31,921 nt of DNA, taken from IMG/VR virus record IMGVR_UViG_3300017779_000074; one strand, written 5' to 3'. The DNA is from a virus. Positions within the stretch are counted from its first letter, which is position 1, and each line of letters begins with the position of its first letter. Shown one piece after another: positions 1,372-31,921 of this stretch. The position numbers were made by a program, and so were the translations under genes. Under the pieces are notes generated by a model, which saw only the letters and a list, made by a program, of their open reading frames with translations, did no database searches and was not told where the DNA came from.

Positions 1372-1551
1372 TTATAAGTAAATAAAGATAAGCGGGGCGA
1401 CAAGCACTAAAACCGCGCCCGCAAAGCCCGCTAATACATCAGTAAAACTCAATTCGTCTATCATTTTTTCAGTATGGTTATACGTTGCGCAGCTTTTGCT
1501 TTTGCTCGCATCGTATTTATACGCGCCGTTTTTGAAATCGCTCGTTATCAT
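1372..1551 (-). CDS. Small protein with a C-terminal transmembrane segment (59 aa)
   Basis: MITSDFKNG...VLAGFAGAVLVLVAPLIFIYL. Its ATG at 1551 overlaps the upstream stop (TAATG). Confidence 0.6.
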   Translation of the reverse strand: MITSDFKNGAYKYDASKSKSCATYNHTEKMIDELSFTDVLAGFAGAVLVLVAPLIFIYL

Positions 1552-1760
1552 TAGAAGGCCTCGCATAAGTCTAAAAATCTTTGTTTAGTATCGGCTTTAT
1601 TCCCTTGGCTGTGAGCAACCCAAAGAGAGCGACCCTTAACACCAACAAAGCGCGACAATTGCGAGCCGCATAAAACCCATTGGCCGCGCTGTAATTTAAT
1701 TTGCCCGCTGATAACTGAATCGCCGTGCACCCATAAATCTATCGGTTTAATAAATTTCAT
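1551..1760 (-). CDS. Hypothetical early protein (69 aa)
   Basis: ATG at 1760 (MKFIKPIDLW...) is preceded by AAGGGGAG. The longer ORF-track start at 1811 lacks an RBS. Confidence 0.65.
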   Translation of the reverse strand: MKFIKPIDLWVHGDSVISGQIKLQRGQWVLCGSQLSRFVGVKGRSLWVAHSQGNKADTKQRFLDLCEAF

Positions 1761-2220: not shown

Positions 2221-2253
2221 TGGGTCAAAAAATCCACACACCCCCCCAGCGGA

Positions 2254-2327
2254 TTCAAGAAAAAAGCTCCCAAAATTTCAAGAGAATACCTCCCAAAATT
2301 TCAATGAAAGACCTCCCAAAATTTCAG
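2254..2327 (-). repeat. Three tandem 23-bp direct repeats (iteron-like) plus a partial fourth
   Basis: The units are 2259..2281, 2282..2304 and 2305..2327. They share an identical 14-bp core, ctcccaaaatttca (minus strand TGAAATTTTGGGAG). Period is exactly 23 bp. Confidence 0.9.
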
Positions 2328-2364: not shown

Positions 2365-2383
2365 ATTGCAACTAACTTGCAAT
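2365..2383. promoter_or_regulatory. Operator-like perfect inverted repeat overlapping the -35 of the rightward promoter
   Basis: ATTGCAA-CTAAC-TTGCAAT, two 7-bp arms with a 5-bp spacer. The right arm contains the TTGCAA -35 hexamer. Confidence 0.45.
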
Positions 2384-2404
2384 TGCGCGTATAAACTATA
2401 TAAT
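2377..2404 (+). promoter_or_regulatory. Rightward early promoter
   Basis: TTGCAA (2377..2382), a 16-nt spacer, then a perfect TATAAT (2399..2404), 33 nt upstream of the first rightward ATG. Confidence 0.55.
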
Positions 2405-2436: not shown

Positions 2437-2682
2437 ATGAGAATTACTAATAAGCAAATATCAGCAAGAATAGAAAGAGAGTTTGGCATTCCACATATCA
2501 ATGTCTTTGTAGATTACGCGACAGGTCATAGCTTTTTTTACAGTGATGATGATGCAACTGCTGAGTGGTTAGGTCTTTGGGAAGAAACAACTACAGGTGC
2601 TTACAGATTAAACAGTTACACTCTTGATGAATGGCTACACGTTTTTAATGTTATGCGACCTAAAATAGTCAAAACTTTATAA
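2437..2682 (+). CDS. Hypothetical first rightward early protein (81 aa)
   Basis: ATG preceded by GCAGGGA. No motif recognised. Confidence 0.7.
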   Translation: MRITNKQISARIEREFGIPHINVFVDYATGHSFFYSDDDATAEWLGLWEETTTGAYRLNSYTLDEWLHVFNVMRPKIVKTL

Positions 2683-2688
2683 TACAAC

Positions 2689-2702
2689 GGGGCGCAAGCC
2701 CC
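2689..2702 (+). other. GC hairpin with a GCAA tetraloop between early genes
   Basis: GGGGC-GCAA-GCCCC. No U-tract follows, so it is more likely an RNA stability or processing element than a terminator. Confidence 0.3.
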
Positions 2703-2724
2703 ACAACCAAAAGAGGGTTAAAAA

Positions 2725-2952
2725 ATGTTCATAAAGGCAACTCAAAAAGATATGGCAAAGTATACTCTTAAAGAATTAATAGACTTCACTGAAAAAATGC
2801 AAGATAAAGCTGAAGCTCTCACGCCACGATTGCAGCGCACCACGGGAATGGACAAGTGGTATAGAAATTCCTTACCAGTTTTGTGCGGCGAGATACAAAA
2901 AAGGCAATTAACAGCTAAAGATAGAGGCGAAATATATCCCGTCTTTTCATAA
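2725..2952 (+). CDS. Hypothetical early protein (75 aa)
   Basis: ATG preceded by AGAGGG. Confidence 0.65.
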   Translation: MFIKATQKDMAKYTLKELIDFTEKMQDKAEALTPRLQRTTGMDKWYRNSLPVLCGEIQKRQLTAKDRGEIYPVFS

Positions 2953-2991
2953 TCAATTAATAGGGGCAAAAGCCTTAAAGGGTAAACAAAT

Positions 2992-3189
2992 ATGTATGCA
3001 ACAATAATTGACGAAGTTTCTTGTTACGGAGCTATAGATAGCGATTCAGTTATCGTTATGGCTTTTGATGATGAAAACTATGACGGTATTTCTGAGTCTA
3101 GCTTCAACACTTGGAGCGAAGCAGTCAAAGAGTGCTCTGATTACGCAAAATCAGTAGGAACAACATTAATTCAATTAGAGGCAGAATAA
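2992..3189 (+). CDS. Hypothetical acidic early protein (65 aa)
   Basis: ATG preceded by AAGGG. Acidic composition. Confidence 0.65.
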   Translation: MYATIIDEVSCYGAIDSDSVIVMAFDDENYDGISESSFNTWSEAVKECSDYAKSVGTTLIQLEAE

Positions 3190-3389
3190 TGCAATACACC
3201 ACAGCCAGCCAGTACGCTAAATTTCACGGTATGAAGTCATTGAAGGAAGTAGCCGATATGACTAATCAATCGTCTGAGACTCTAATTAATTGGTACAAAA
3301 AGAAGCGCGAATTGTTCGAGGTCGTTATAGTTGGCTGCGTAGTCACTAAACGAATGAATGAGATGGAGCAGGAAGTAGATGGCGATTAA
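3189..3389 (+). CDS. Hypothetical early protein, possible small HTH (66 aa)
   Basis: TAATG start/stop coupling. The LKEVADMTNQSSETLINWYKKK segment looks HTH-like, but the evidence is weak. Confidence 0.55.
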   Translation: MQYTTASQYAKFHGMKSLKEVADMTNQSSETLINWYKKKRELFEVVIVGCVVTKRMNEMEQEVDGD

Positions 3390-3810
3390 GAGAGATGCAG
3401 CAGATAATTGGTTTTCAAAATGTGTCCGTGAGCGCACTAATTACACCTGTGAAGTGTGTTATAAGCAATATGACCGCAGCTCGACTGGTCTGCATTGCTC
3501 TCATTACCACGGTAGGGCAAATAAATCCGTTAGATGGCACGGTGACAATGCCTTCGCCCACTGTTTCGGCTGTCACCAAAAAATGGGAGCAAATCCACAC
3601 GAATTCCAGCTCTGGACAGAGAATATATTAGGTTCTGGCAGGTATGACCTACTAACTGAACGCAAGAATGATACCAATATGGGCAAGCAGATGCACAAAG
3701 ATAATAAAGCGGGTCATATTGCGAAGCATTATAAAGAACAACACGCCATATTGTCAGAAAAAAGGGCAGATGGTGAAACTATGTACTTAGACTTTGAGGA
3801 TTACTTGTGA
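3379..3810 (+). CDS. ninG: NinG-like zinc-binding recombination/nuclease-family protein (143 aa)
   Basis: The pattern FSKCVRERTNYTCEVC...CSHYHGR...VRWHGDNAFAHCFGCHQ matches, from memory, the Cys/His layout of lambda NinG (FIRERD..C.SCG...AGHY..R...RF.ERN....C..CN). Confidence 0.55.
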   Translation: MAIKRDAADNWFSKCVRERTNYTCEVCYKQYDRSSTGLHCSHYHGRANKSVRWHGDNAFAHCFGCHQKMGANPHEFQLWTENILGSGRYDLLTERKNDTNMGKQMHKDNKAGHIAKHYKEQHAILSEKRADGETMYLDFEDYL

Positions 3811-3998
3811 GCGCAGTTAATAAGTTTAGAGAAAAGCAAAAAGAAAAAGGCAATGCCGAAGTGCGTGGTCTATATTGTAAAAAAGAATGTCACAAAGACA
3901 TCAAGTCACATATCAAACACATTTTAAGATTACACGATAAAGGGATAACCGATGAGCAAATCCGTAGTAGACTGGCTAGAATTGATCTGGAAAATTGA
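3807..3998 (+). CDS. Small basic protein, possible RHH-type regulator upstream of the initiator (63 aa)
   Basis: GTG start 6 nt after GAGGA. The N-terminus FREKQKEKGNAEVRG resembles small replication-regulator RHH proteins (memory only). Confidence 0.5.
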   Translation: MSAVNKFREKQKEKGNAEVRGLYCKKECHKDIKSHIKHILRLHDKGITDEQIRSRLARIDLEN

Positions 3999-4614
3999 TC
4001 TACCTAGCAACTCCAAGTATGTAGCAAGTTATCTTAGAACTTATATGAATATGAAGCGCGACCTTTGTTGGCCGTCAGTTGGTCGTATAAGCAAGGAAAC
4101 TGGGCTATCTGAGCAAACAGTAAGGGCGCATATTAAGAAGCTAGAGGCGGCTGGGTGGCTTACAGTTGATAGAAGTGAAGGCGGGCATAGTGGCACAACA
4201 AATCGCTATAAAGCGACCATACCTGATACCCCTGCAACCATTGCACCCCTGCAACCATTAGACCCCACCCCTGCAACAGTTGCACCCCTACCCCTGCAAC
4301 CATTAGAGGGGAATAAACAATACAATAAACAAGTGAATAAACAATTATTAAATAAAGAGATTCCTGATGAGTTAGCTGCGGCTGCAACAGCGTACTGGCT
4401 CAAGAAGGGCGCGAGCTTCGATATGGAAGAACAATGGCTGCTATTTACTTCTCATCATCAGGCTAAAAAGACTAATGTCCACAACTACGCAGCAGCGTGG
4501 CGAACGTGGTACGTCAATGCCGTTAGGTTTAACGCTAATCGACCTGAGAAAAAAGAAAAGATTTTCAATAGATTAACTGATGATTCGTGGGCAAATGGCT
4601 TTATTGATAAATAA
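3952..4614 (+). CDS. Replication initiator (lambda O-like layout) with a winged-helix N-terminal domain (220 aa)
   Basis: The N-terminal wHTH-like segment is CWPSVGRISKETGLSEQTVRAHIKKLEAAGWLTV. The gene contains four iterons followed by an AT-rich repeat block, as the lambda ori does within gene O. Confidence 0.6.
   Translation: MSKSVVDWLELIWKIDLPSNSKYVASYLRTYMNMKRDLCWPSVGRISKETGLSEQTVRAHIKKLEAAGWLTVDRSEGGHSGTTNRYKATIPDTPATIAPLQPLDPTPATVAPLPLQPLEGNKQYNKQVNKQLLNKEIPDELAAAATAYWLKKGASFDMEEQWLLFTSHHQAKKTNVHNYAAAWRTWYVNAVRFNANRPEKKEKIFNRLTDDSWANGFIDK
4229..4304 (+). repeat. Origin iterons inside the initiator gene
   Basis: CCCCTGCAACCATT at 4229..4242, 4246..4259 and 4291..4304, and CCCCTGCAACAGTT at 4268..4281. 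Together they encode the PATIAPLQPL repeat in the protein. Confidence 0.7.
4312..4344 (+). repeat. AT-rich 12-bp-period repeats next to the iterons (candidate DNA unwinding element)
   Basis: AATAAACAA at 4312..4320, 4324..4332 and 4336..4344. Confidence 0.5.
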
Positions 4615-4627
4615 TTTAAAATAAAGT

Positions 4628-4656
4628 TTGACAAATGCTAGATATGCGCGTAATCT
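4628..4656 (+). promoter_or_regulatory. Candidate internal promoter for the middle part of the rightward arm
   Basis: A perfect TTGACA (4628..4633), a 17-nt spacer, then TAATCT (4651..4656). The spacer contains GCGCGTA, as does the spacer of the promoter at 2377..2404. Confidence 0.5.
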
Positions 4657-4695
4657 TATAAACATCAAGTCATCAAATGCAAAGGGAGCATAAAA

Positions 4696-4968
4696 ATGAT
4701 AAACGATAATCCAGCACGAGTAGCATCTCCAGAGTCACCAGTTGAGCCAGACCTTAGAAAATTGAAGTACGATTTTTTACACAATTATCTAGATACTGAT
4801 AATACTGACTCTGCCTTTCACGAAGCCCTAGAAGATCGCATTTTTGAGAGCGGCTTAATCCACCACTGGCTGCGTAAGCTATACACTCATAAAGCTGACC
4901 AAGTGCAGCTAGATATGCAAGACCTTTTAACTGATTTTGTATCTGACTACATTGAGGCGAAGCTATGA
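4696..4968 (+). CDS. Hypothetical protein (90 aa)
   Basis: ATG preceded by AAGGGAG. Confidence 0.7.
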   Translation: MINDNPARVASPESPVEPDLRKLKYDFLHNYLDTDNTDSAFHEALEDRIFESGLIHHWLRKLYTHKADQVQLDMQDLLTDFVSDYIEAKL

Positions 4969-5198
4969 AAACTAAAGAATTGGAGGGTGCATTAGTTGAT
5001 GAGTCTATCGGTGACGCTCACTCACATAAAGAGTGGGAAGGCTGGCTAGAAGCAAACCTAATGTCGATGATGGCTGACTATGCTCGCGAAGCTGGTTATC
5101 CAACTGGTTATGAGTTCGGCAAGGCTATGGAAGCAATGGCGCTAGAGATTTGGCAGCTAATGAATGACAAGCAGCAAGACGAAGGAGTACCGTTCTAA
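4965..5198 (+). CDS. Hypothetical acidic protein (77 aa)
   Basis: ATGA start/stop overlap with the upstream gene. Confidence 0.65.
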   Translation: MKTKELEGALVDESIGDAHSHKEWEGWLEANLMSMMADYAREAGYPTGYEFGKAMEAMALEIWQLMNDKQQDEGVPF

Positions 5199-5329
5199 TG
5201 GCTATGTATACTTGTGATAACTGTAATGAGTTAAAAGACGATGACTGGTCGCCTTGCTCCGCAACTAAAACGATGGACTGGGTTTGCGAAGATTGCTTGC
5301 CAGAAGTTGAAGAAGAAGAAAATGGGTAG
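5198..5329 (+). CDS. Small Cys-rich zinc-ribbon-like protein (43 aa), not in the ORF track
   Basis: MAMYTCDNCNELKDDDWSPCSATKTMDWVCEDCLPEVEEEENG. It has CxxC ... CxxC pairs. TAATG couples it to the upstream gene, and its stop overlaps the next ATG (ATGGGTAG). Confidence 0.5.
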   Translation: MAMYTCDNCNELKDDDWSPCSATKTMDWVCEDCLPEVEEEENG

Positions 5330-5618
5330 GGAGAAAGAGTTTAGTCCTGTTGATTTTGAGCATCGCGGGACTGCTTACCAAAAGCATCACGATAGAATGG
5401 TAGGCGGCTCAAAAAGGTTTGTATCTGATACGCCTTGCCCTAAATGCGGGGAGTATCTGAGAAGGTGGCGCAAACAAAGAGAAGACCAAAAGACTTCATC
5501 TTGTGTTAGCTGCTCGCAGATAGCAAAGAATAAAACAGCCGATACGGTTAAATGCGATAAACGCAGAGCAATAGAAGAACACCAAAACAAAATGGGAGAT
5601 TACGATGACTATCTATAA
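5322..5618 (+). CDS. Zinc-ribbon protein (98 aa)
   Basis: ORF-track frame 5241..5618. I prefer the ATG at 5322 (MGREKEFSP...) because the longer start overlaps the better-supported 43-aa ORF. Cys pairs are CPKC and CVSC. Confidence 0.6.
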   Translation: MGREKEFSPVDFEHRGTAYQKHHDRMVGGSKRFVSDTPCPKCGEYLRRWRKQREDQKTSSCVSCSQIAKNKTADTVKCDKRRAIEEHQNKMGDYDDYL

Positions 5619-6207
5619 GAAAATAGCAACAGCACGAACTAAGCTACAATCTATGCCGCTAAAGAAATCAGGGCATAATAAGTTTGCAGGGTACAACTAC
5701 TTCGAGCTAGGTGACTTCTTGCCAGCTTGTAACGATATATTCGCAGAGCTAGGCTTATGCGATGTTATTAGCTTCGGCACTGAGTTAGCTACACTTACTG
5801 TATACGATACTGAGACTAGCGAGAGCGTAGTATTCAGCTCACCAATGGCATCAGCCAACTTAAAAGGCTGTCACGATATTCAAAATCTTGGCGCGAGCCA
5901 GACCTACCTACGCAGATACTTATGGCAAACCACTATGGGTATGGTTGAGCACGATGCGTTAGACGCTTCTAAGCCCGACCAGCCAAGCCGCGAGGAGATA
6001 TGCGCCAAAGCAGTAGAAGCTCATATTGATTCTCTACAGTACATTCGCAAAATGTTAAGTGACGCTACATCTGAAAATGTTGCACTGGCTAAAGAAGCGT
6101 TCGGTGAGATACCCGATACAGATCAGAGAGCTATGTGGGTTGCTCCAACTAAATGCTCTACTGCATTCCTAACAACTGAGGAGCGTAGACTGCTTAAAGG
6201 CGCGTGA
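5605..6207 (+). CDS. erf: ERF-family single-strand annealing recombinase (200 aa)
   Basis: KKSGHNKFAGYNYFELGDFLPACNDIFAELGL and GASQTYLRRYLWQTTMGM align by eye with P22 Erf (NQYNSFGKYKYRSCEDIL...GL and GATSSYARKYCLNGLFGI). RBS is GGGAG. Confidence 0.8.
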   Translation: MTIYKKIATARTKLQSMPLKKSGHNKFAGYNYFELGDFLPACNDIFAELGLCDVISFGTELATLTVYDTETSESVVFSSPMASANLKGCHDIQNLGASQTYLRRYLWQTTMGMVEHDALDASKPDQPSREEICAKAVEAHIDSLQYIRKMLSDATSENVALAKEAFGEIPDTDQRAMWVAPTKCSTAFLTTEERRLLKGA

Positions 6208-6428
6208 GAATATCTGACAGATTAAAGATGAGGATAGTTAAGATGCTGCACTTTACTCAGTTAAACTACTCTGAAATATCACGCTCGCTAGGTGTCCGTA
6301 GGGAAGTGGTTTATAAGATCGCTAAAGAAGTAAAAGACGATAAGCCGCTAACTGATGATGAGCTGGCTTGCACTAGCGTAACGCAGGGCTTTATGAATTA
6401 CTTAGCGAGGAATGACGATGGACGATGA
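6204..6428 (+). CDS. Small HTH DNA-binding protein (74 aa)
   Basis: GTG start overlapping the erf stop. The HTH-like segment is LNYSEISRSLGVRREVVYKIAKEV. Confidence 0.55.
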   Translation: MRISDRLKMRIVKMLHFTQLNYSEISRSLGVRREVVYKIAKEVKDDKPLTDDELACTSVTQGFMNYLARNDDGR

Positions 6429-6504
6429 GGAATGGTTAGAGATTATCGCAGCTTTAGTAATAATTGGTTTCGGGTTTATTTTTATAATACAAACTACACA
6501 TTAA
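6418..6504 (+). CDS. Small single-pass membrane peptide (28 aa), not in the ORF track
   Basis: MDDEEWLEIIAALVIIGFGFIFIIQTTH. Its ATG overlaps the end of the upstream gene. Confidence 0.4.
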   Translation: MDDEEWLEIIAALVIIGFGFIFIIQTTH

Positions 6505-6514
6505 GGAGAGAAAG

Positions 6515-6697
6515 ATGAAAGAAGAAAATTCAGTTTATATAGCGTTAGCACTTATGTTTGTTTCAGTAGGGGCTTGGTTCACACACATTATCCACTGTCT
6601 TATCCACGCTAAGTATTTGTTGTTGATTGCTGGCGCGTTTATGTTCCCTGTTGGGATTATCCACGGTGTAGGTATTTGGTTTGGGGTTAGCTGGTAA
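6515..6697 (+). CDS. Two-pass membrane protein (60 aa)
   Basis: Strong RBS AAGGAGAG. Two hydrophobic spans: VYIALALMFVSVGAWFTHII and LLLIAGAFMFPVGIIHGVGIWF. Confidence 0.7.
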   Translation: MKEENSVYIALALMFVSVGAWFTHIIHCLIHAKYLLLIAGAFMFPVGIIHGVGIWFGVSW

Positions 6698-6927
6698 TGC
6701 AAAAAGAGATGGTTTCTCTAATAGATCGCAGGTCAGTATTTGCCGATGGTAAAGAAATAGCAGAGGCTCTTATCGACCTGTACCATAACTCAGAGGAAGA
6801 AATTTCAACTTTTCATAGGTATCTTTTAGCAGAAGCGGCTATGCACATAAAAGGGCTGCAAGATGAGCACGAAAAATGCTTAGAGATATTTTCTAAATTA
6901 AATGGGGGGTATAGCGGTGGGTACTAA
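6697..6927 (+). CDS. Hypothetical protein (76 aa)
   Basis: TAATG coupling to the upstream gene. Confidence 0.65.
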   Translation: MQKEMVSLIDRRSVFADGKEIAEALIDLYHNSEEEISTFHRYLLAEAAMHIKGLQDEHEKCLEIFSKLNGGYSGGY

Positions 6928-7018
6928 AGGCATAGACCAAAGACCTTATGATCGAGATAAATTTAATAATAACTTTGATGCCATTTTTGGCAAAAAAGAA
7001 GAAAAAAAGAGGAGGTGA
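6917..7018 (+). CDS. Small basic peptide (33 aa), not in the ORF track
   Basis: GTG at 6917 lies 7 nt after GGGGGG. Sequence MGTKGIDQRPYDRDKFNNNFDAIFGKKEEKKRR. It fills the gap before the next gene. Confidence 0.35.
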   Translation: MGTKGIDQRPYDRDKFNNNFDAIFGKKEEKKRR

Positions 7019-7021
7019 AGG

Positions 7022-7225
7022 TTGAACGAAGAACATCTGGAGGAAGGCGATCTTATGATCGCGATAAAAAAGTCACCTGATAATGAGTCATTTTTTCTAC
7101 TCATATCGACCGACCAAACAACAAGTATTTTTGATGTCGGTGACAAAACTGATTTAAGGGCGCTCGGTGAGTTGTTCCTTGAAACAAGAAATTCAATTAT
7201 TGATCTAACAAGGGAGTTACATTAA
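7022..7225 (+). CDS. Hypothetical acidic protein (67 aa)
   Basis: TTG start 5 nt after GGAGGTGA. Confidence 0.6.
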   Translation: MNEEHLEEGDLMIAIKKSPDNESFFLLISTDQTTSIFDVGDKTDLRALGELFLETRNSIIDLTRELH

Positions 7226-7476
7226 TGAATAATCCAAGCCAGTACGACTTGATAAAAGACCACTTAGAATCAGGCAAGACTCTAACAAGATTAGAGGCTC
7301 TGAGCGATTTAGGTATTATGAATCCGACCGCACGAATATCAGAACTAAGGGCAGATGGAATCCCCGTAGAGACAAGAATGGTCGGTGTCTACAACAGATG
7401 GGACGCAAAGGTTAAGGTTGCTCAGTGGTTTATACCTGAGCAGGAAAGCCCTTTATTTAGACGTAATCGCAGCTAG
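7225..7476 (+). CDS. Winged-helix/HTH DNA-binding protein (83 aa)
   Basis: GKTLTRLEALSDLGIMNPTARISELRADGIPV resembles, from memory, the small phage HTH family with L..ARI.ELR..G. TAATG coupling. Confidence 0.55.
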   Translation: MNNPSQYDLIKDHLESGKTLTRLEALSDLGIMNPTARISELRADGIPVETRMVGVYNRWDAKVKVAQWFIPEQESPLFRRNRS

Positions 7477-7593
7477 GCAGCACTTCCTTGCGCTGCTGCT
7501 GGTCAGCGTTACCTAGCAACCAGCAAACTTTAAACTTAAAATCACTTTCAAATTTGAGAGTTATTTTCCACCTTGACTAAAGAGAGTATAACT

Positions 7594-7872
7594 ATGCAAT
7601 ACGATGACAATAACAAAGGCGCACTATGGCCAGCAAAAGACCGAGCTTCTGATAAACACCCACATTTCACTGGTAAAGCTATGGTGGGCGGGGTTGAGTA
7701 TTATGTTTCAGGTTGGAAGCGCGACCCTAACGGCAATCCAAAAGCGCCCTCGGTTAAGTTTAGCTTTAAGGCGGTAGATGAAGTGAAGGCGCAAACTATG
7801 CAGCAAGTGCCACAACAAACGCAGCCAGCTCAGGCAGCACCGATTGACTTTGATGATGATATTCCATTTTAG
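7594..7872 (+). CDS. Short ssDNA-binding-like protein carrying the bacterial SSB C-terminal tail (92 aa)
   Basis: ATG at 7594 lies 7 nt after AAAGAGAG; the ORF-track TTG at 7573 has no RBS. The C-terminus APIDFDDDIPF ends with the same 8 residues as E. coli SSB. A Gln/Pro-rich linker precedes it. Confidence 0.6.
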   Translation: MQYDDNNKGALWPAKDRASDKHPHFTGKAMVGGVEYYVSGWKRDPNGNPKAPSVKFSFKAVDEVKAQTMQQVPQQTQPAQAAPIDFDDDIPF

Positions 7873-7881
7873 GGATTAGTT

Positions 7882-8250
7882 ATGAAATATACAGCTCAGG
7901 CAACAACAGGTATTACAGGCGCACCCGCTGGAATGTATGGCGATTTGCGAGTGGACTCTTTGGGGACAGGCGATAAGTTTGACCCTTGGAAAATACAAAC
8001 CTCAATGTTTGGTGAAAAAATGAGGCTGTCTGAAGTCAGAGATAACATCAGAGATTTCCATAGGTTAAACGCCTATGGGACTCTTGTTATGTTTGCACTA
8101 AGGAATGGATTTACCGAAGACCAATTGTGCAGGGTTGCAGATAACAAAAAGAATATCTGTTATGACCTGTACTGCGGTGATGTCATTTTTAGAAAGTTGA
8201 ATGACCGCCACTATAAACGCAAAGCAAAGAAGGTGCGTAAAGGTGCGTGA
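7882..8250 (+). CDS. Hypothetical protein (122 aa)
   Basis: ATG preceded by AGGGA. Basic C-terminus. Confidence 0.7.
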   Translation: MKYTAQATTGITGAPAGMYGDLRVDSLGTGDKFDPWKIQTSMFGEKMRLSEVRDNIRDFHRLNAYGTLVMFALRNGFTEDQLCRVADNKKNICYDLYCGDVIFRKLNDRHYKRKAKKVRKGA

Positions 8251-8704
8251 ATTTATAATTAACCCAGCTAACCAAGATACTGTTGATGATTTTGTTAGCT
8301 ATTTAGATGAGACTCTGCAAGGTGGTGGCTTATTCAAAGTCACCATCAAGCAAGTTAAAGACAGGTCGCTGTCACAAAATGCTTTACTCCACATATGGTT
8401 TAGAGAGTACGCAGCAATGCGCCTTAATAAGCCCCTCAAGAAGATTACTCAAGACGATACCGATTCTATTAAGTTACTTGTCAAACAAGCCTGTTACGGT
8501 GATATGAAGTACGACTGGCTATGCCAGCGTGTGACTAATATAGATACTGGCGTCTCAGCTTTTGTTTTAAGGTCTACCAGTAGATATGACAAGGGCGAGA
8601 TGTTTATGTTTATGGAGTGGTTTCAAGCGTTCGCAGCACAAAAAGGTTTATTACTTGAATCAATGGGTGAATTCGGGAGATTAAAAGATGAAACCAACCA
8701 ATAG
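8201..8704 (+). CDS. ninB: NinB/Orf-family recombination mediator
   Basis: RSLSQNALLHIWF and STSRYDKGEMFMFMEWFQAFAAQKG align by eye with lambda Orf (RSLDQNRKLWA and STSRMRVGEFAELLELIQAFG). The true start may be the GTG at 8243, which overlaps the upstream stop. Confidence 0.75.
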   Translation: MTATINAKQRRCVKVREFIINPANQDTVDDFVSYLDETLQGGGLFKVTIKQVKDRSLSQNALLHIWFREYAAMRLNKPLKKITQDDTDSIKLLVKQACYGDMKYDWLCQRVTNIDTGVSAFVLRSTSRYDKGEMFMFMEWFQAFAAQKGLLLESMGEFGRLKDETNQ

Positions 8705-8867
8705 AGATAGATGTGAAAGTTATAAAGATATTTGCGAGGTCAGGTTCTTACTTTATATGGCGTACCAGTGCGATAGTGTGACAGAAAAGAAGAAGTTAAT
8801 TGATGACGCGATGATTAAGATTGACTCTTACATATGGGAAGATTTTGCGGAGTATCGTACTAAATGA
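8688..8867 (+). CDS. Hypothetical protein (59 aa), just below the ORF-track cutoff
   Basis: MKPTNRDRCESYKDICEVRFLLYMAYQCDSVTEKKKLIDDAMIKIDSYIWEDFAEYRTK. It is coupled at both ends by overlaps (ATGA with the next gene). Confidence 0.5.
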   Translation: MKPTNRDRCESYKDICEVRFLLYMAYQCDSVTEKKKLIDDAMIKIDSYIWEDFAEYRTK

Positions 8868-9292
8868 GATACGCCAGCCACTATAAAGACGACCCTAACG
8901 AAGATAGAATAATCGCTCACGCCTGTAGGGCTTGGAAGTGCCAAGCAAAGAAAATCCCGCCGCATTACGTTCTAGACTTCGCTATGTTGCGTAAAGGTCA
9001 GATAGTCGGCTTTGTTGAGGTTAAGAAGCGACACTTCCACTACGATAAATTCCCGACAACAATCATTCCATTCAATAAGATAATAAAGGCTAAAGATATG
9101 CTCAGGTTCGGCTATCCGTCATTCTTTATGGTTGAGTGGAACGATAGAATAGGCTGGGTGAGCTTAGACAGTAAGCCCGACAAGATAACCGTGGAAGGCC
9201 GTACAGATCGAGGCAGACCCGATGACATACAGCCTATGGCGCATTACAGTATAGACCAGTTTACTTTTCTGAACTGCCAGCCAACTGATTAG
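8864..9292 (+). CDS. PD-(D/E)XK-type nuclease (142 aa), possible junction resolvase
   Basis: LDF...GQIVGFVEVKKR gives a D ... E-x-K motif with typical spacing. It is the last gene of a nin-like recombination block. Confidence 0.5.
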   Translation: MRYASHYKDDPNEDRIIAHACRAWKCQAKKIPPHYVLDFAMLRKGQIVGFVEVKKRHFHYDKFPTTIIPFNKIIKAKDMLRFGYPSFFMVEWNDRIGWVSLDSKPDKITVEGRTDRGRPDDIQPMAHYSIDQFTFLNCQPTD

Positions 9293-9683
9293 CAACATCA
9301 ATAGCTCGCTGACCTACTTGGTCGGCGTATCGGCTATTAAGTAACTCACTTCCCGCTAAATCGAATTCACCTTCCTCAATGTAAGCGATGGTCTTTTTAA
9401 ATTGCTTAAACTTCGACAACCCCATATTAAATACTAGGTTGATGATCGCCTCTTTACGCTCTGGCGACAATTCAGCAAACCACTCAAAGTTAGACCAGCA
9501 CTGCCCAGCTACGCGAGCTATATCATTCTCTAACAGGTAGGTGGCTTCCTCTTTTGATATACCGACATCATCAAGGTTGCGACCGACACCGATAGTCAGC
9601 TTATCAGCAGTACACTTATAAGGCTCTAACTTTAAACCTTCGTGAATTATTAGTTGTTTAGTTAGTCGTTCTTTATTAATCAA
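9261..9683 (-). CDS. Endolysin, T4-type lysozyme (GH24)
   Basis: IHEGLKLEPYKCTADKLTIGVGRNL matches the E-x8-(D/C)-x5-T catalytic pattern of T4/P21-type lysozymes. There is no N-terminal TM. The likely start is the TTG at 9683, 8 nt after GGGAG; the ORF-track start is the TTG at 9698. Confidence 0.85.
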   Translation of the reverse strand: MINKERLTKQLIIHEGLKLEPYKCTADKLTIGVGRNLDDVGISKEEATYLLENDIARVAGQCWSNFEWFAELSPERKEAIINLVFNMGLSKFKQFKKTIAYIEEGEFDLAGSELLNSRYADQVGQRAIDVANQLAGSSEK

Positions 9684-9687
9684 TGGA

Positions 9688-9721
9688 AAAGCTCCCAAAA
9701 TCTAATAGAAAAGCTCCCAAA
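9688..9721 (-). promoter_or_regulatory. Two tandem copies (22-bp spacing) of the conserved 12-mer TTTGGGAGCTTT between holin and endolysin
   Basis: aaagctcccaaa at 9688..9699 and 9710..9721. The proximal copy supplies the endolysin SD; the distal one has no ORF to serve. Confidence 0.6.
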
Positions 9722-9723
9722 AA

Positions 9724-10203
9724 TTAGGAATCTTCTTTTTTGTGACTTGCGCCAAAGTAAAATGAAGTAATTGCCGAAACAACACCGCCCATATAGCCTA
9801 AAACAAGGCTAACAATAGTATCGCTATTAGCGTCAGGAGGCTGAATAGTAACAAGAAAGATATAACCCACAAAACCAACAAGGGAAATAAGGGCAACAAT
9901 TCTAGGTGTCCAATCGCCTTTGTGGGCTTTTCTTGCGTCTTGTATATCTTTCGCTTCCAGTGCAAAGATGTCAACTTCCAACTCAGCCATTTTAGTTTCA
10001 AAATCAAGCTCCGCTTTTTTAACTTCGACAAGTTGCTCTGGTGACGCAGTTTGTAACGCCTTTTCAATACTTTTAGGGTCATTACTACAACCTAAAGCCT
10101 TAGCAATAGCAGATGCAGCAGCACCACCTAAAGGGCTACCTAGCGCAGTGCCAAGAACAGGCGCAACAGCACCAATAATTCCCTTAATTGCTCCAAAATT
10201 CAT
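9724..10203 (-). CDS. Putative holin (159 aa, three hydrophobic segments)
   Basis: A Gly/Ala-rich N-terminal hydrophobic segment, a central charged helix, and two C-terminal TM spans (IVALISLVGFVGYIFLVTI and IVSLVLGYMGGVVSAITSFYF). It lies immediately upstream of the endolysin. Confidence 0.55.
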   Translation of the reverse strand: MNFGAIKGIIGAVAPVLGTALGSPLGGAAASAIAKALGCSNDPKSIEKALQTASPEQLVEVKKAELDFETKMAELEVDIFALEAKDIQDARKAHKGDWTPRIVALISLVGFVGYIFLVTIQPPDANSDTIVSLVLGYMGGVVSAITSFYFGASHKKEDS

Positions 10204-10298: not shown

Positions 10299-10501
10299 TA
10301 CTCTATCTCCTCAATCTCAGTATTACTAATAATTAATGTTGTTTTAGCCCATTCCATAGCGCCTACAATCTCACCGTAGGTTAATAGTCCCTGCTCTGCG
10401 TATTCGTCAATCAACGCAATTATATCGTTATAGAAGTCATCTGTAGCTGCATTTCGGTAGCTATAGTTATTATGCTGTGTTAAATCTTTGACATCGGACA
10501 T
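10298..10501 (-). CDS. Hypothetical acidic protein (67 aa)
   Basis: TAATG coupling to the upstream gene. Acidic composition. Confidence 0.65.
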   Translation of the reverse strand: MSDVKDLTQHNNYSYRNAATDDFYNDIIALIDEYAEQGLLTYGEIVGAMEWAKTTLIISNTEIEEIE

Positions 10502-11655
10502 TATAACCTCTCAGTTGACCGCCTTACCTCACCCTTCTCTTTATCTAGGACAAGTAAGCACATTGATTGTCCACTTACATAGCCGCTAGAATCGTGCCAA
10601 GCATCAGATGGCGGTAGACCTGCAAAGCTCTCGGTTACTGTTTGCCCATAGGTTTCGCGGCTAATTTGCTTACTGTGTATGTGGCCGTGCCAACACATTC
10701 TATGCGTGCTTGCCCCCCACTCCTCTGGGTATCTGGCTGCAAAATACTCAGCCATTTTAGCGTGTTTAATAGTGTCACCGTGAGTAACCATAAAGGCTGT
10801 TTTGCCGTGTTGGTACACCCAGCATACAGCAGGTGACATTTCTATTGTAACTCTTTTATTGTTGCGCCAATAGGCTTGTTGTTGAGCCTTGAGAGCCATA
10901 GAGGTAATCGCATCGTGATTTCCGCGACAGTGACGCACTATAACCTTGTTAAAACGCTTTAGAGCCTCCTCTACGATAAAGGACATAACTTCAAGCCCTA
11001 TTAGGAAAACGTGCTCCAGGCGGCCATCAGTGTCCAGTGGAGTGCCTTTAGTGGTTGTTCCTGTGTAAGTATCGGCGTGGTAGTAATCGCCTAGCTGATT
11101 AATTACGATTGTGTCGCATTCGGGCGCATTGTTCATTAGACGCATAAATACTTCTTTGTGGCGGCTTGCAGCAATCTTACAGTCGTAATTATCACCAGAG
11201 ATGTCATCGTGAGCCAGCATACCAAAGTGAGCATCACCGATATTGACTACAGCAAGCTCTTGATCTTTTAGCTTTTTCTTTGGTTTAGGTATATTAGGTG
11301 ATTTGTTTTTGTGATCTTCTAGGAACTCATCGAGCGCGTTTTTAATGCTTTGTATCTGATCTTCTTGCTTTAAGTTGGTCTTGACCCACTGGGCTTTGAC
11401 CTGACCATCTTCTGAATAGAGTGTTGAAGTGCCTTTGACTAGGTGGGTAGATGGAGCAGTGTGAATCATATCGTGGTTAGGTGAGTAGCCTTGACCTGCT
11501 GCTCTCCTTACTACTATGCGCTTGTGGGATTGAACGGCAGACCTTGTAACACCTAGTATTGCTGCGCTCTTGTTCTCTGATACGCCTTCGAGATATAACT
11601 TTATTACTTCGCGCTGCTTGTCCGTAGTGCAGTAATCTAATAGCTTCTTTTCCAT
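10501..11655 (-). CDS. Fusion of a sigma70-region-4/LuxR-type HTH and a calcineurin-like metallophosphoesterase (384 aa)
   Basis: The N-terminus TDKQREVIKLYLEGVSENKSAAILGVTRSAVQSHKRIV is HTH-like. The phosphoesterase motifs occur in order: GDAHFG, LGDYYH, GNHD, THGD, HGHIH. RBS is GGGGGGAG. Confidence 0.75.
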   Translation of the reverse strand: MEKKLLDYCTTDKQREVIKLYLEGVSENKSAAILGVTRSAVQSHKRIVVRRAAGQGYSPNHDMIHTAPSTHLVKGTSTLYSEDGQVKAQWVKTNLKQEDQIQSIKNALDEFLEDHKNKSPNIPKPKKKLKDQELAVVNIGDAHFGMLAHDDISGDNYDCKIAASRHKEVFMRLMNNAPECDTIVINQLGDYYHADTYTGTTTKGTPLDTDGRLEHVFLIGLEVMSFIVEEALKRFNKVIVRHCRGNHDAITSMALKAQQQAYWRNNKRVTIEMSPAVCWVYQHGKTAFMVTHGDTIKHAKMAEYFAARYPEEWGASTHRMCWHGHIHSKQISRETYGQTVTESFAGLPPSDAWHDSSGYVSGQSMCLLVLDKEKGEVRRSTERL

Positions 11656-20404: not shown

Positions 20405-21309
20405 TCGATATAACCTATAGCGTTAATTGACCAGTTTAATAAGGTTGGCGAGCTGTAACTAGGCTGCTTCAAACTGCCATCTATAGTGCAGAAATATAAC
20501 TTCTGCTGTTCTGATATCTTATTATCGTTAGAGCCAGCCGCGTCCTTATTATACATAAAGAAAAATGGGTAGTGTGATAAAAAGTAACCAGCATAATCTA
20601 TAAATGGATAGGTCTTTAAATGACCGTTGATCTTTGTATACTGGGCTGAATCAGTAGTTGTATATAGATCAGCCTCACTGAAATGCTGTAAGTTAATGCT
20701 TATTTTTTGCGGCACTTTTTTTACATCACTACTTAAATAATTAGCATTGTTGTTTCTTTTGATTGACGCTTTATAAGGTGTAAAGCTAGGCGGTATAAAA
20801 GGCGCAGAGATTTCAACGTGGTCAGTAAGCCAGTGACCCATTGATAAAATAGAAATATAGCTATCAGCGCCCCAACCTACAGTTTCTATCGTTAATCTTC
20901 GTACAGATACAGAGGCATCAAAAACAGCACCAAAAGGTGAGTATAAATTATCTTCTGGCTTGTAAGTGTTGCTAGTGTAGGGAGCGCCCTTAAAATCAGT
21001 ATCAATGTTACCAGAAGTATCGGTATCGTATAAAATCTTAATACCTTGGTTTCGGGTCAGATTATGACCATAAATAGCAAAGCCATTCACAGTTGTAGCA
21101 ACAGGAAAAGTAATTGTAATGAATGCTTTTTTAAGGCTTGAGTCGACTCTAAACGAAGTAGCACCACTATCATCTATACAATTAACAAACGGATAACCTT
21201 CGGCAGAACCGTAGGTAGCATTCTCTGTAGATACAACAGTAGTTTGACCTGACTTCCTGCGCCAGTATTCGTGGTGCAGTTTGTTTTCCAGTAAAAGTGC
21301 TCCAGACAT
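20401..21309 (-). CDS. Minor tail protein in the distal-tail-protein position (302 aa)
   Basis: It follows the tape measure directly, with ATGA-type overlaps at both ends. The call rests on position only. Confidence 0.45.
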   Translation of the reverse strand: MSGALLLENKLHHEYWRRKSGQTTVVSTENATYGSAEGYPFVNCIDDSGATSFRVDSSLKKAFITITFPVATTVNGFAIYGHNLTRNQGIKILYDTDTSGNIDTDFKGAPYTSNTYKPEDNLYSPFGAVFDASVSVRRLTIETVGWGADSYISILSMGHWLTDHVEISAPFIPPSFTPYKASIKRNNNANYLSSDVKKVPQKISINLQHFSEADLYTTTDSAQYTKINGHLKTYPFIDYAGYFLSHYPFFFMYNKDAAGSNDNKISEQQKLYFCTIDGSLKQPSYSSPTLLNWSINAIGYIE

Positions 21310-23615
21310 TATGTACCTACCAATGCGTTAATTTCTAAGCCATCTTCAGTGGCTTCGTTAATGGCTTCTATGATACGTCTTGCACCCTCTGGGTCAATAG
21401 AGCCGTCTACTGTTACGTTAATAGGTTGTGGTGCAATAACTTCATTTATTTGATCTTCTGGTTGTATTGGTGGTGAGGCTATTGCTGGGGTTGCGCCACC
21501 GCCACCGCCACCGCCACCGCCACCGCCACCGCCACCGCCACCAGACGATGAACCACCAAACTTTTGCGCCTGTATTCCTCTGATGCTATTCATACCTGTG
21601 CCTAAAGCGTAAGCAACCGCAGGTATCGCCATCGGCCAGCCTAACTTCACACCAGCATTGACACCCTCATACATAGTTATGTATGCGTTAGCAATACCAG
21701 CAGCTTTTTGCAATTTGAACATTTTTTTACTTTGACCTGCAAACTCGCCGAAAGCCTTAGTATACATACCAGTCATAAACTTGGCTTTTTCCACCTCACT
21801 TAGCTTTTCAAACTTATCCCTTTTGATTTTAGCTTGAGCATCAAGATCGCCTAATCTTGCTTTTCGTTTAAGCTCTTTTTCCTCTCTAGCTACTCTTGCA
21901 TCAGCCTTTTGTTGTTCTTTTTCTTCAATAACCACTAACTCTTGGTCATACTCAGCTCTAATTCTTTCAAGTTTAGCTTGAAGTAATACTTCTGCTGTAG
22001 TTTCTTCAATCTCCCCAGCAGCAAGCATTCTATCTATATCTTGTTGGGCTAGTTGATCTTTAAGCTCTTTTTCAAACAAGGCAGCTTCTGTGAGCCTATC
22101 TTGACGCTCAAGTTGGAAGATAGCTGCCTGACCCATTTCTTCTTCTGCGGCTAATTGGTTTGCAGCTTTAGCTTCTTCCCTTCTAATTCTTTCTTTTTCT
22201 GCTTTATCGGCAGCTCTTTTTTCATCAGCAGCAGCAGCTTTTTCTTTAAGCTCTTGTTCTTTATCGTATTTATCTAATAACGGCTTGAAAATTTTCATCA
22301 TAGGGTCATCTTTTGTCCCTACAGTAGATGAACTCTCAGGAACATCAAACTCATCTTCTCCAGTCTCTCTATCCCTGCGACCCTCAATAGCCAAAGATGA
22401 AGCTCTTGATGCAGCAAAAGCCTCTTTCCTCATTTTTACTAATTGCTGAGTTTTTTCAGCTATTTTTTCTCCAAATAATGAGTCAGCAGAATCTTTTTGA
22501 CCAAGCATTACTAGAGCAGCGTAAGCGCTTTTTAAAAAGTTTACCTCTTGTGTTAGCTCTGTGAACTCCTCTTTACCTGACGGCGTTAATGCCTTGCCGA
22601 AATCCTCAATACCACGAAAAACAGCAGCAATAACACCAACAACAGAGGTCGCTTTATCTGCTAGTCCAGCAGCCTTTGCTATTTGTATTGAAGCGTTGGT
22701 TATGTTTTCTCCAAGTAAATCTGTAGCAGCAGCTAGACCGCCGCCTTCGCCAGCACCTTTTAACTTGCCTTCTATCTTACTAAGAATAATATCTTGAGCT
22801 TCAAGTAGTTTATTGCTTTCTGCTAATTGTTTTATCTTGTCTTTTTCGGCTTGAGTAAAAGTTATACCAGCGCGAGTCATAGCGGTTAGGTTGCCGATTG
22901 GGTCTTCTAAGGCTTTTGCTAATGTTTTAGCGGAACTAGCAGCAGTCACACCCATTACTGCGGAAAGATCAACAGAGGCGTTTACAGCCCTCTCAAAGAC
23001 ATCTCCCTGAACTTTACCAAAGCTAAGTAAGATGCCTTGAACATCTCGTATTCCTGCGGCACTAGCTAGGGTGTCTCTCCCTACTTGCATTGCCATTGAG
23101 TCTAGCTGTTTTGCTGTGAACCCTGCCGAGTTACCTGTAGCTTTAGTGATAGCTTCAAGTTTAAGCATCTGCGTTTCGTAAGCAGAAAAAGCCTGTAAGG
23201 AATTTTTAACTATTGTTGTTACTCCAGCAAGAGCAACACCAGCAGCAATACCGCTTGCGCCAAACCTATCAAGACCAGTAGCCAAGAATGATAATCGACC
23301 AGAAACCCCACCAAGTGGGCCAGTCATTACGGCAGCAGAGTTAGATGCTTGCTTCAAAGAAGTAACCATCTTGTCAGTGCTTTTTGTTGTTTTCTTTTGC
23401 TGATCGCCTAGCTTTTTAGTAGCTTTTGTTAGCTTATCTTCTTTTTGTGTAAGTTTTTCTGTAGCTTGTTCAGATTTTTTCCTAGCTTTAGTTCCGTCAT
23501 CAATAGATCGAGCAGATTTACCAGACTCTTTTGCAAGTTTTTTTAACTCATCATTAGCTTTTTTAAGTTGAGCAGTGTTGGCCTCAAATATCAGTCTTGC
23601 GATTGTGTCTGCCAT
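21309..23615 (-). CDS. Tail tape measure protein (768 aa)
   Basis: A long Ala/Lys/Glu-rich coiled coil with Gly/Ala hydrophobic segments and a C-terminal G16 tract. It sits after the chaperone genes. Confidence 0.9.
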   Translation of the reverse strand: MADTIARLIFEANTAQLKKANDELKKLAKESGKSARSIDDGTKARKKSEQATEKLTQKEDKLTKATKKLGDQQKKTTKSTDKMVTSLKQASNSAAVMTGPLGGVSGRLSFLATGLDRFGASGIAAGVALAGVTTIVKNSLQAFSAYETQMLKLEAITKATGNSAGFTAKQLDSMAMQVGRDTLASAAGIRDVQGILLSFGKVQGDVFERAVNASVDLSAVMGVTAASSAKTLAKALEDPIGNLTAMTRAGITFTQAEKDKIKQLAESNKLLEAQDIILSKIEGKLKGAGEGGGLAAATDLLGENITNASIQIAKAAGLADKATSVVGVIAAVFRGIEDFGKALTPSGKEEFTELTQEVNFLKSAYAALVMLGQKDSADSLFGEKIAEKTQQLVKMRKEAFAASRASSLAIEGRRDRETGEDEFDVPESSSTVGTKDDPMMKIFKPLLDKYDKEQELKEKAAAADEKRAADKAEKERIRREEAKAANQLAAEEEMGQAAIFQLERQDRLTEAALFEKELKDQLAQQDIDRMLAAGEIEETTAEVLLQAKLERIRAEYDQELVVIEEKEQQKADARVAREEKELKRKARLGDLDAQAKIKRDKFEKLSEVEKAKFMTGMYTKAFGEFAGQSKKMFKLQKAAGIANAYITMYEGVNAGVKLGWPMAIPAVAYALGTGMNSIRGIQAQKFGGSSSGGGGGGGGGGGGGGGGATPAIASPPIQPEDQINEVIAPQPINVTVDGSIDPEGARRIIEAINEATEDGLEINALVGT
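21495..21542 (-). repeat. Perfect hexanucleotide microsatellite (GGTGGC)x8 encoding Gly16 in the tape measure
   Basis: Plus strand reads gccacc x8 without interruption. Confidence 0.95.
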
Positions 23616-31641: not shown

Positions 31642-31653
31642 AAAGCTCCCAAA
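31642..31653 (-). promoter_or_regulatory. Fourth exact copy of the 12-mer TTTGGGAGCTTT, abutting the terL ATG
   Basis: Plus strand aaagctcccaaa at 31642..31653. It supplies the terL SD (GGGAG). Confidence 0.6.
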
Positions 31654-31678
31654 TCCCCGCAGGGGAGAAATTTTTTTT
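31654..31678. other. Short GC hairpin flanked by A8/T8 between terS and terL
   Basis: TCCCC-GCA-GGGGA (31654..31666), then GAAA and T8 (31671..31678) on the plus strand. On the late mRNA the hairpin sits directly 5' of the terL SD. Confidence 0.35.
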
Positions 31679-31681
31679 AGG

Positions 31682-31921
31682 TTATTCTGGAGCTACGATT
31701 TCGATATTTATGGGTTCAATACGCGATTGTTGGTCAATATCCATCTTATCGGTCTGACCTAATAGGTTTTTACCTAAGAATATCGCTAATTGAGTGTTAC
31801 CGTCCATAGCCATCTCTAGTTGTTTGCGTCTAAGCCCTTTAATGGCCTCAAAGCGACCTCTATCAATGGCAGCCTTGAAATCGGGGTTATTTCTATACCT
31901 ATCCTCTATAACATCTTCGGA
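31682..31921 (-). CDS. terS: Small terminase subunit, 3' part (continues from 1..234; 31799..31921 duplicates 1..123)
   Basis: The frame is continuous across the 31798/1 junction. Stop TAA at 31682..31684. Confidence 0.75.
   Translation of the reverse strand, partial: SEDVIEDRYRNNPDFKAAIDRGRFEAIKGLRRKQLEMAMDGNTQLAIFLGKNLLGQTDKMDIDQQSRIEPINIEIVAPE
31799..31921. repeat. Window-terminal direct duplication, copy 2
   Basis: Identical to 1..123. Confidence 0.95.

Follow-up and report, generated by a model that had tools for sequence, protein, structure and literature searches.

The Cox protein of P2 and the Apl protein of 186 bind arrays of direct repeats that lie between the early promoters, and they bind again at a second locus; binding is cooperative and about three or more sites are needed (PMC3936717, PMC7498355). 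In Cluster A mycobacteriophages, repressors recognize asymmetric, orientation-dependent sites located in promoters and short intergenic gaps (PMC9283540). The subject here is a 23-bp element that recalls both arrangements, found in a 31,921-nt stretch of viral DNA, IMG/VR record IMGVR_UViG_3300017779_000074 (“the window”), which is a whole phage genome of ~31.8 kb. Three units of the element form a tandem array between divergent promoters, and further copies lie at the starts of the endolysin gene and of terL, the gene for the large terminase. The element is a real, selected cis element that is found clade-wide. Given its conservation across uncultured relatives, it is probably neither a chance repeat nor a replication iteron, the term used for it in a preliminary description of this DNA, but a control site specific to the phage. 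The reading favored here, with a probability of roughly 0.45, is that the 23-bp units are putative asymmetric binding sites on double-stranded DNA for a small phage-encoded regulator, either a 66-amino-acid (aa) helix-turn-helix (HTH) protein encoded at a Cro-like position or a 63-aa protein that co-occurs with the array.

The array and its copies at the endolysin and terL genes

On the plus strand, positions 2254-2326 hold three direct repeats with an exact spacing of 23 bp, which correspond to minus-strand units at 2327-2305, 2304-2282 and 2281-2259. The preliminary description had reported three units with a common core at 2259-2327, and this was borne out: a 14-bp core, CTCCCAAAATTTCA (minus strand: TGAAATTTTGGGAG), is the same in all three. 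Unit 3 (2305-2327, minus strand; CTGAAATTTTGGGAGGTCTTTCA) is the closest to the rightward promoter, unit 2 (TTGAAATTTTGGGAGGTATTCTC) occupies 2282-2304 on the same strand, and unit 1 (2259-2281, also minus strand; TTGAAATTTTGGGAGCTTTTTTC) holds the exact 12-mer TTTGGGAGCTTT. This 12-mer occurs four times in the window, at 2263, 9688, 9710 and 31642 and, as had been claimed, on the minus strand only. With the 123-bp terminal overlap removed, it is the sole dispersed 12-mer with at least four copies in the genome. The only other 12-mer to reach that number stems from a CGCCAC microsatellite, a perfect run of eight copies (21494-21542) inside a 768-aa open reading frame (ORF) at 21309-23615.

Evidence that the repeat is non-random, as had been argued earlier, came from shuffled sequences and from a position weight matrix (PWM). 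None of 100 dinucleotide-preserving shuffles contained any 12-mer with at least four copies. The PWM, which was trained solely on array units of other lineages, found five full sites in the window, namely the three array units at 32-33.5 bits (33.5, 32.3 and 32.1 bits for units 1, 2 and 3) and two units at the endolysin gene at 26-28 bits. These scores are far above the shuffle maximum of 12.9 bits, and the rest of the window gave 12.4 bits or less. By this measure, the copy at terL is only a truncated unit.

The two endolysin-side copies (9684-9728) form a 22-bp tandem duplication (9678-9722). The distal unit (9706-9728, minus strand; 27.9 bits) lies right behind the stop codon of the gene at 9724-10203 and has TTA in the place of a start codon. 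That gene had been called a holin, a name that lacks support, as it matches only a PHROG of unknown function. The proximal unit (9684-9706, minus strand; 26.1 bits) forms the translation-initiation region of the endolysin gene, with GGGAG, 8 nt and a TTG start codon at 9683-9681. The frame opens with LINKERLTKQLIIHEGL, an N-terminus of the lysozyme type, and its product has a match in PHROG 7, endolysin. At terL, the truncated unit (31642-31653, minus strand) makes up the Shine-Dalgarno (SD) region, where TTTGGGAGCTTT runs directly into the ATG at 31641 to give GGGAG-CTTT-ATG. The proximal endolysin unit and the terL copy each combine an SD sequence, a distance of 4-12 nt to a start codon and a conserved ORF behind it, and this pattern is kept in relatives. 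The array units lack this combination. The frames that follow them are 8-27 codons long in the window and vary in length and sequence among relatives, where the TTG of the units is frequently TTA or CTG. The array is non-coding, in line with the earlier statement that its units serve no real gene.

Conservation, orientation and co-occurrence in relatives

Relatives, whose loci or contigs are designated by L-numbers, were collected by pattern and protein scans of IMG/VR and marine metagenomes. More than 20 distinct marine viral or metagenome contigs carry the same element, many of them from TARA and coastal samples; conservation in related phages was a check that the preliminary description had itself named. 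Neither the region nor 25 kb of the window had a DNA match in the INPHARED phage collection, and a pattern scan of genome contigs returned only chance matches in unrelated taxa, which revealed neither prophage copies nor a hint of the host. A search for the motif in the full text of the literature brought up unrelated primer sequences only. The array consists of 2-4 tandem units with a 22-23-bp period in every lineage, sometimes with one unit displaced, and always lies between the leftward promoter region and the conserved rightward promoter. On the minus strand, the unit consensus is rAATTTTGGGAG-(G/C)-T-n-TT-y-y-n-TT-(G/A)-(G/A)-A, of which the conserved block is AATTTTGGGAG plus the downstream TT(G/A)(G/A)A. 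The flank GCTTT, previously taken to be conserved, is not where the conservation lies, as it contains a position that alternates between G and C across the family.

The surroundings of the units have been exchanged. The left flank carries one to three LexA boxes or unrelated DNA, and the right flank has differing promoter regions and even a differing first rightward gene; depending on the lineage, the last unit is separated from the rightward -35 by anything from about 8 to about 150 bp. Mosaic breakpoints fall at the units, on both sides of the array and where the endolysin gene begins, and AAAATTTT recurs in each unit at the 22-23-bp period. Such features would also be expected if the repeat had a structural or recombinational function that needs no dedicated protein, with phased A4T4 tracts curving the DNA between the divergent promoters, or with junction sequences promoting mosaic exchange. 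This is an improbable explanation, since curvature needs neither the invariant GGGAG nor the TTrrA block, and since the strict co-occurrence of array and satellites in a single orientation points to a specific reader. Moreover, the units within one genome are not homogenized and show no trace of gene conversion. A start-region unit resembles the array units of its own genome no more than those of other genomes, and concerted evolution, or “cognate” pairs of array and target units, was rejected on these grounds.

A second line of evidence concerns orientation. PWM matches of at least 18 bits number 96 in 26 loci, and all 96 are on the same strand, with none on the other. The sites at late genes are co-directional with transcription. 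In L054 and L060, the satellites of the early operon face the other way: a complete antisense unit lies in the short gap between two plus-strand early genes, at 14981-15003 in L054 (also at 5641 in L048 and 8201 in L052) and at 12222-12244 in L060. These antisense units retain the full 23-nt consensus though they are unable to be start sites. Because the whole ~23-nt consensus (AATTTTGGGAG, s-T-n-TT-yy-n and TTrrA) is kept in copies that are unused for translation, array units as well as these antisense units, the constraint on the element exceeds that on an SD sequence. The CCUCC of the L054 antisense unit can pair with the GGAGG SD sequence of the next gene.

Additional evidence came from the joint presence and absence of the copies, which supports the earlier proposal that those in the array, at the endolysin gene and at terL belong to one system. 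The same three locations are occupied in diverged relatives, and relatives that lack the array are without the endolysin element. Every array-bearing lineage with a window-type endolysin has a unit and a TTG start at that gene, in one or two unit copies, and GGGAG-N8-TTG is conserved there in L026/L061, L027/L064, L028/L065, L033, L060 and L066 as well as in the window and in phages close to it. L029 and L030, which lack the array, have an endolysin that is 88-89% identical to that of the window, starts with ATG and has an ordinary upstream region; the array-lacking L031 and L032 likewise have an ATG endolysin start with no element. A different RBS-like motif (RBS, ribosome-binding site), TCTTGCCCTC on the plus strand and read as GAGGGCAAGA on the minus strand, is reused six times on one strand of L031 (1350-6637).

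At terL, L008/L060 and L026 have a full unit, and L025/L049/L054 have a pair at 23-bp spacing. At these sites the start codon is TTG, or an ATG created right behind the TTGA of the unit. Between terS and terL in the window, a short GC hairpin, CTCCCC-TGC-GGGGA (31655-31672, minus strand), stands directly before the terL unit, and a counterpart, ACCGC-TTC-GCGGT, is found upstream of terL in L026. By its sequence this hairpin resembles a weak terminator, for which the unit itself would be the U-tract.

Candidate ligands of the element

The array is located within a 460-bp divergent control region (1979-2436), between a leftward and a rightward promoter, and is upstream of the predicted promoters on either side. 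The rightward early promoter, TTGCAA-16-TATAAT (2377-2404, plus strand), is of a strong sigma-70 type and is conserved across the clade. The leftward promoter has a -35-like TTGACC (2228-2223, minus strand) beside LexA-type boxes. Support for a DNA-site reading of the units comes from their conservation while the surroundings were replaced, from the co-variation of presence and absence, from the single orientation, and from the lack of a conserved promoter or terminator for an RNA. On this reading, the tandem array would be the main operator between the divergent leftward (LexA-box) and rightward early promoters, and several copies of the protein would bind it side by side, two helical turns apart, in a cooperative manner. 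One or two further sites would be provided by the start regions of the endolysin and large terminase genes and, in some relatives, another before an early gene. Protein bound at these satellites would hinder RNA polymerase or the expression of that gene, and control of the two most dangerous late functions would thereby be tied to the state of the early switch. The GGGAG-N8-TTG of the site would have been co-opted by the endolysin and terminase genes as their RBS and start codon. If the site doubles in this way, as proposed, the invariant and weak TTG start of the endolysin gene would be explained. We infer that the ligand is a protein, namely the 66-aa or the 63-aa one, and that it would read the units as DNA rather than as RNA, either to repress or to activate.

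The first candidate, the 66-aa HTH protein (3189-3389, plus strand), matches PHROG 409, transcriptional regulator, with E 5e-4. Its Pfam matches to MerR/HTH families and a PDB match to a TetR HTH are weak and below threshold; it aligns weakly with residues 3-41 of lambda Cro (P 0.006) and shows no meaningful alignment with lambda Xis. In most lineages its gene is the first behind the rightward promoter, which is the position of Cro in lambda and also of Cox and Apl. The second candidate, a 63-aa basic protein (3807-3998, plus strand) with an unassigned fold, is encoded in array-bearing genomes: its gene is present in 8/8 array-bearing loci that reach it and in 0/7 array-lacking loci. Conversely, about 21 of 30 metagenome loci retrieved with the 63-aa protein carry the array, and most of the others have less than ~1 kb of upstream sequence; one locus, L046, has 1.8 kb upstream of the gene and no array. 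An exhaustive HMMER search of 1.84 billion proteins gave six cluster representatives of the 63-aa family and no clue to its affiliation, and homologue searches with the 63-aa and 66-aa proteins returned near-identical fragments only.

Other phage proteins were considered and rejected. The gene at 10501-11655, which had been put forward as an obvious suspect, encodes a DNA-repair exonuclease/metallophosphoesterase (PHROG 704, E 9e-92) that does not co-occur with the array: it is missing from the array-bearing L026, L027 and L033, and L029 and L030, which lack the array, conserve it at 97-99%. A 74-aa protein (6204-6428) with a weak “sigma-like” character is found in the closest relatives only.

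Several points weigh against the DNA-site reading. The 66-aa HTH family also occurs in phages that lack the array, including cultured Vibrio, Pseudoalteromonas and Marinomonas phages, and the co-occurrence of the 63-aa gene with the array may be mere clade membership or shared ancestry. For both candidates, all matches in Pfam, PHROG and PDB are below threshold and no fold can be assigned; single-sequence AlphaFold models are unreliable, with a pLDDT (predicted local distance difference test) of 62 for the 63-aa protein and an implausible single long helix for the 66-aa protein. Strict single orientation is not demanded by a simple operator model. Searches turned up neither an integrase nor a repressor, so that it is hard to see where an immunity-type “stoperator” function would fit in the life cycle. 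Every unit also contains a good SD sequence, and the endolysin and terL satellites are true translation starts, so that an RNA-level ligand (protein, ribosome or antisense RNA) may read the unit instead. The distribution of the 66-aa family in those cultured phages places the host among marine gammaproteobacteria; the HTH domain is present in Vibrio phage 1.110.O and in Marinomonas phage P12026, the latter of which has no copy of the motif.

RNA-level models, taken together, are unlikely, though they account for a substantial part of the remaining doubt. In one of them, the unit is a specialized translation-initiation region that is read on mRNA by a translational regulator or by the 30S subunit or S1, and a leftward transcript of the array serves as a multi-site decoy or standby platform, similar to CsrB or the TRAP leader. 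In favor of this model, the units have the layout SD, 8 nt, TTG with U-rich flanks, and the copies at the endolysin gene and terL act as genuine start sites, doubled in some relatives. A minus-strand hairpin plus T-run after the array in L023, with a weaker one in the window, could be taken as a terminator. However, the array is upstream of the leftward -35 and no conserved minus-strand promoter lies to its right; the hairpin is not conserved even in L023 and L009, which are closely related; some genuine units run against the direction of local transcription; and many array units have TTA or CTG for TTG. The T-run, which looks like a terminator tail at first sight, is more plausibly what is left of a degenerate unit. 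In the window, the left flank of the array (2224-2258, minus strand; TTGAATCC...GTGGATTTTTTGA) may be such an additional unit, its end overlapping the -35-like TTGACC of the leftward promoter, and a GGATTTTTT remnant also follows the array in L009, L025 and L008. The model as a whole is quite unlikely.

A base-pairing RNA is rated as equally unlikely. Here, a rightward transcript of the array would contain 3-4 copies of CUCCCAAAAUU, each of which could base-pair with the ribosome-binding regions in endolysin and terL mRNA, and as an early transcript would restrain the translation of lysis and packaging genes. Unit 1 is complementary to both endolysin copies over 15 contiguous nt and to terL over 12 nt, and array and target start regions were gained or lost together. 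In L054 and L060 a unit is present in the early-mRNA sense strand as CUCCC, and the L054 copy has its pairing partner in the neighboring GGAGG. There is also a weak plus-strand promoter-like site at 1994-2023 that is kept in close relatives. Against this, the conserved rightward promoter lies downstream of the array; neither a plus-strand promoter just to the left of the array nor a terminator to its right is conserved across lineages; and the matching of start-region units to own and foreign arrays is equal, with no sign of pairwise co-evolution.

Both RNA models depend on transcription of the array, as do the ribosome-loading decoys and the RNA operator of the preliminary description, which found no support here. 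No conserved promoter or terminator for an array RNA was found on either strand across lineages, and the array has no Rfam match. Its folding z-scores on the two strands are unremarkable (-0.47 and +1.07, the latter for the putative base-pairing transcript). The array therefore lacks what would mark a small RNA or decoy RNA, namely a promoter and terminator of its own, structure, and membership of a known RNA family. A reading of the unit as a sigma-70 or sigma-54 promoter was rejected on inspection because the hexamer spacing never fits; the sole promoter-scan match that uses the motif, TTGGGA-18-TATACT in L008, is not conserved.

The tandem direct repeats at about two helical turns, together with the copy that always lies at the terS-terL junction, raise the question of replication-origin iterons or of recognition repeats (pac) for the small terminase. 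Either is very improbable. An origin inside the O gene is the classic lambda-type layout, and the O-like initiator gene (3952-4614) has its own repeats, 4-5 copies of ACCCCTGCAACCATT at 17-23-bp spacing (4219-4312), followed in the same gene by an AT-rich 12-mer repeat (4312-4345). The ACCCCTGCAACCATT repeats are unrelated in sequence to the array, and, judged by this arrangement, 4219-4345 is probably the true replication origin. The array lies 1.6 kb upstream of the O-like gene and has no AT-rich unwinding tract adjoining it. Copies at the endolysin start and within the early operon, which are lost when the array is lost, are explained by neither an iteron nor a pac model.

The remainder of the genome offers some context. 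Positions 1-123 are identical to 31799-31921, which means that the assembly is circular or terminally redundant. Along the minus strand come, one after another, five small genes that form a left operon (1963 down to 691), terS, running over the assembly junction (start near 237), terL (31641-30403), and portal, head and tail genes, followed further on by the exonuclease (11655-10501), the gene at 10203-9724 and the endolysin (9683-9261). The plus-strand early operon (2437-9292) encodes the 66-aa HTH protein, NinG, the 63-aa protein, the O-like initiator, Erf, SSB and NinB. Pfam and PHROG searches detected no integrase, repressor or partition gene in the window, and they gave nothing useful for the five left-operon proteins and most early proteins.

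Adjoining the leftward promoter are three overlapping LexA (SOS)-box-like palindromes (2165-2220), each of 20 bp (TACTGT-N8-ACAGTA), 18 bp apart and with 0-1 mismatch. A perfect LexA box, CTGTATATATATACAG, is found in L025, and in L033 the homologous boxes overlap a leftward TTGAAA-16-CATACT promoter. The boxes are kept in several relatives, and others have unrelated DNA at that place. Triple LexA boxes are odd where neither a repressor nor an integrase can be detected. Between them and the first left-operon gene lie ~160 bp of non-coding DNA (2000-2160) that are conserved in the window, L002, L003 and L001 and contain no conserved ORF; a 23-codon ORF at 2122-2051 was rejected because its ATG is missing in L003. 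This segment may be a structured leader of the left operon. A 64-aa left-operon protein (1372-1566, minus strand) has a hydrophobic C-terminal tail. Many relatives, among them the array-lacking L030, share this protein at 42-85% identity, and it may be a small membrane protein controlled by LexA.

Comparison with described systems

A broader proposal is that one 23-nt module has two roles, as the operator of divergent early promoters and as RBS plus start codon for endolysin and terminase, and that a single phage factor acting on DNA, or on DNA and mRNA, couples the early switch to packaging and lysis, with host LexA also wired in for many members of the clade. We regard this proposal as doubtful. 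To our knowledge, such a coupling device, with an operator doubling as the RBS and start of late genes in apparently non-integrating marine phages, has not been described; a variant in which the array encodes a multi-seed anti-SD RNA that times lysis would be equally novel. If the favored reading of the units as regulator sites is right, a compact regulon, built from one asymmetric site at three loci, would link the early promoter switch to terminase and endolysin, and would account for an endolysin confined to a weak TTG start. It would also offer a clean test case of a binding site that doubles as a translation start, with candidate ligands of only 63-66 aa, in a clade whose hosts are probably Vibrio-like gammaproteobacteria. 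An annotation risk is corrected in any case, as the repeat resembles an origin iteron array but is not one. The triple LexA box with no detectable repressor or integrase raises the question of SOS control in an apparently lytic phage.

The likeness to lambda-type iterons, which serve the O protein at the origin, lies in tandem direct repeats of ~20 bp at roughly two helical turns. The array differs from them in being neither in nor beside the initiator gene, and a separate, typical origin is present here in the O-like gene. At the RNA level, CsrB/CsrA and TRAP, the latter acting at the trp leader plus the trpG and trpP start regions, combine an array of a repeated motif with single sites at the start regions of targets. 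The layout described here is similar, with an array of an SD-like motif and single sites that overlap target start regions. Unlike in those systems, no promoter, terminator or structure was found for the array, and units are also antisense to local transcription.

Parallels exist with P2 Cox and 186 Apl, and with lambda Xis, in the 2-4 direct repeats between divergent promoters and the satellites at the endolysin gene and terL. In those systems a small protein from the early operon binds DNA at short sites that are asymmetric. At least three direct repeats between early promoters and a second target locus, as for Cox and Apl, are present in the window. The differences are considerable. Spacing is 22-23 bp here, whereas Cox, Apl and Xis sites are spaced at 10-11 bp, one helical turn; the unit is ~23 bp, compared with 9 bp for Cox and Apl. 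The second loci are gene start regions, whereas those of Cox and Apl are attP, and no integrase was found here. Cox boxes occur in both orientations, and the units of the element never do. Finally, any homology of the 66-aa protein to the winged-helix excisionases of the Cox/Apl/Xis family would be putative, its MerR/HTH matches being below threshold.

Parallels with the stoperators of Cluster A mycobacteriophages (L5 gp71-type) are seen in the satellites on the terL and endolysin start regions, all in one orientation; stoperators, too, show a strong orientation bias. L5 has more than 20 sites of 13 bp genome-wide, compared with 5-7 sites of ~23 bp here, half of them in one array. The window has five full sites and one truncated site, with no repressor or integrase, rather than the many sites and immunity function of a stoperator system. 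Some satellites oppose local transcription, and orientation is constant relative to the genome; the hosts, too, are unrelated to those of Cluster A phages. The element is thus a member of neither the Cox/Apl nor the stoperator family. It is a variant of operator-array and dispersed-site systems, one in which a site that doubles as a translation start is the unusual feature.

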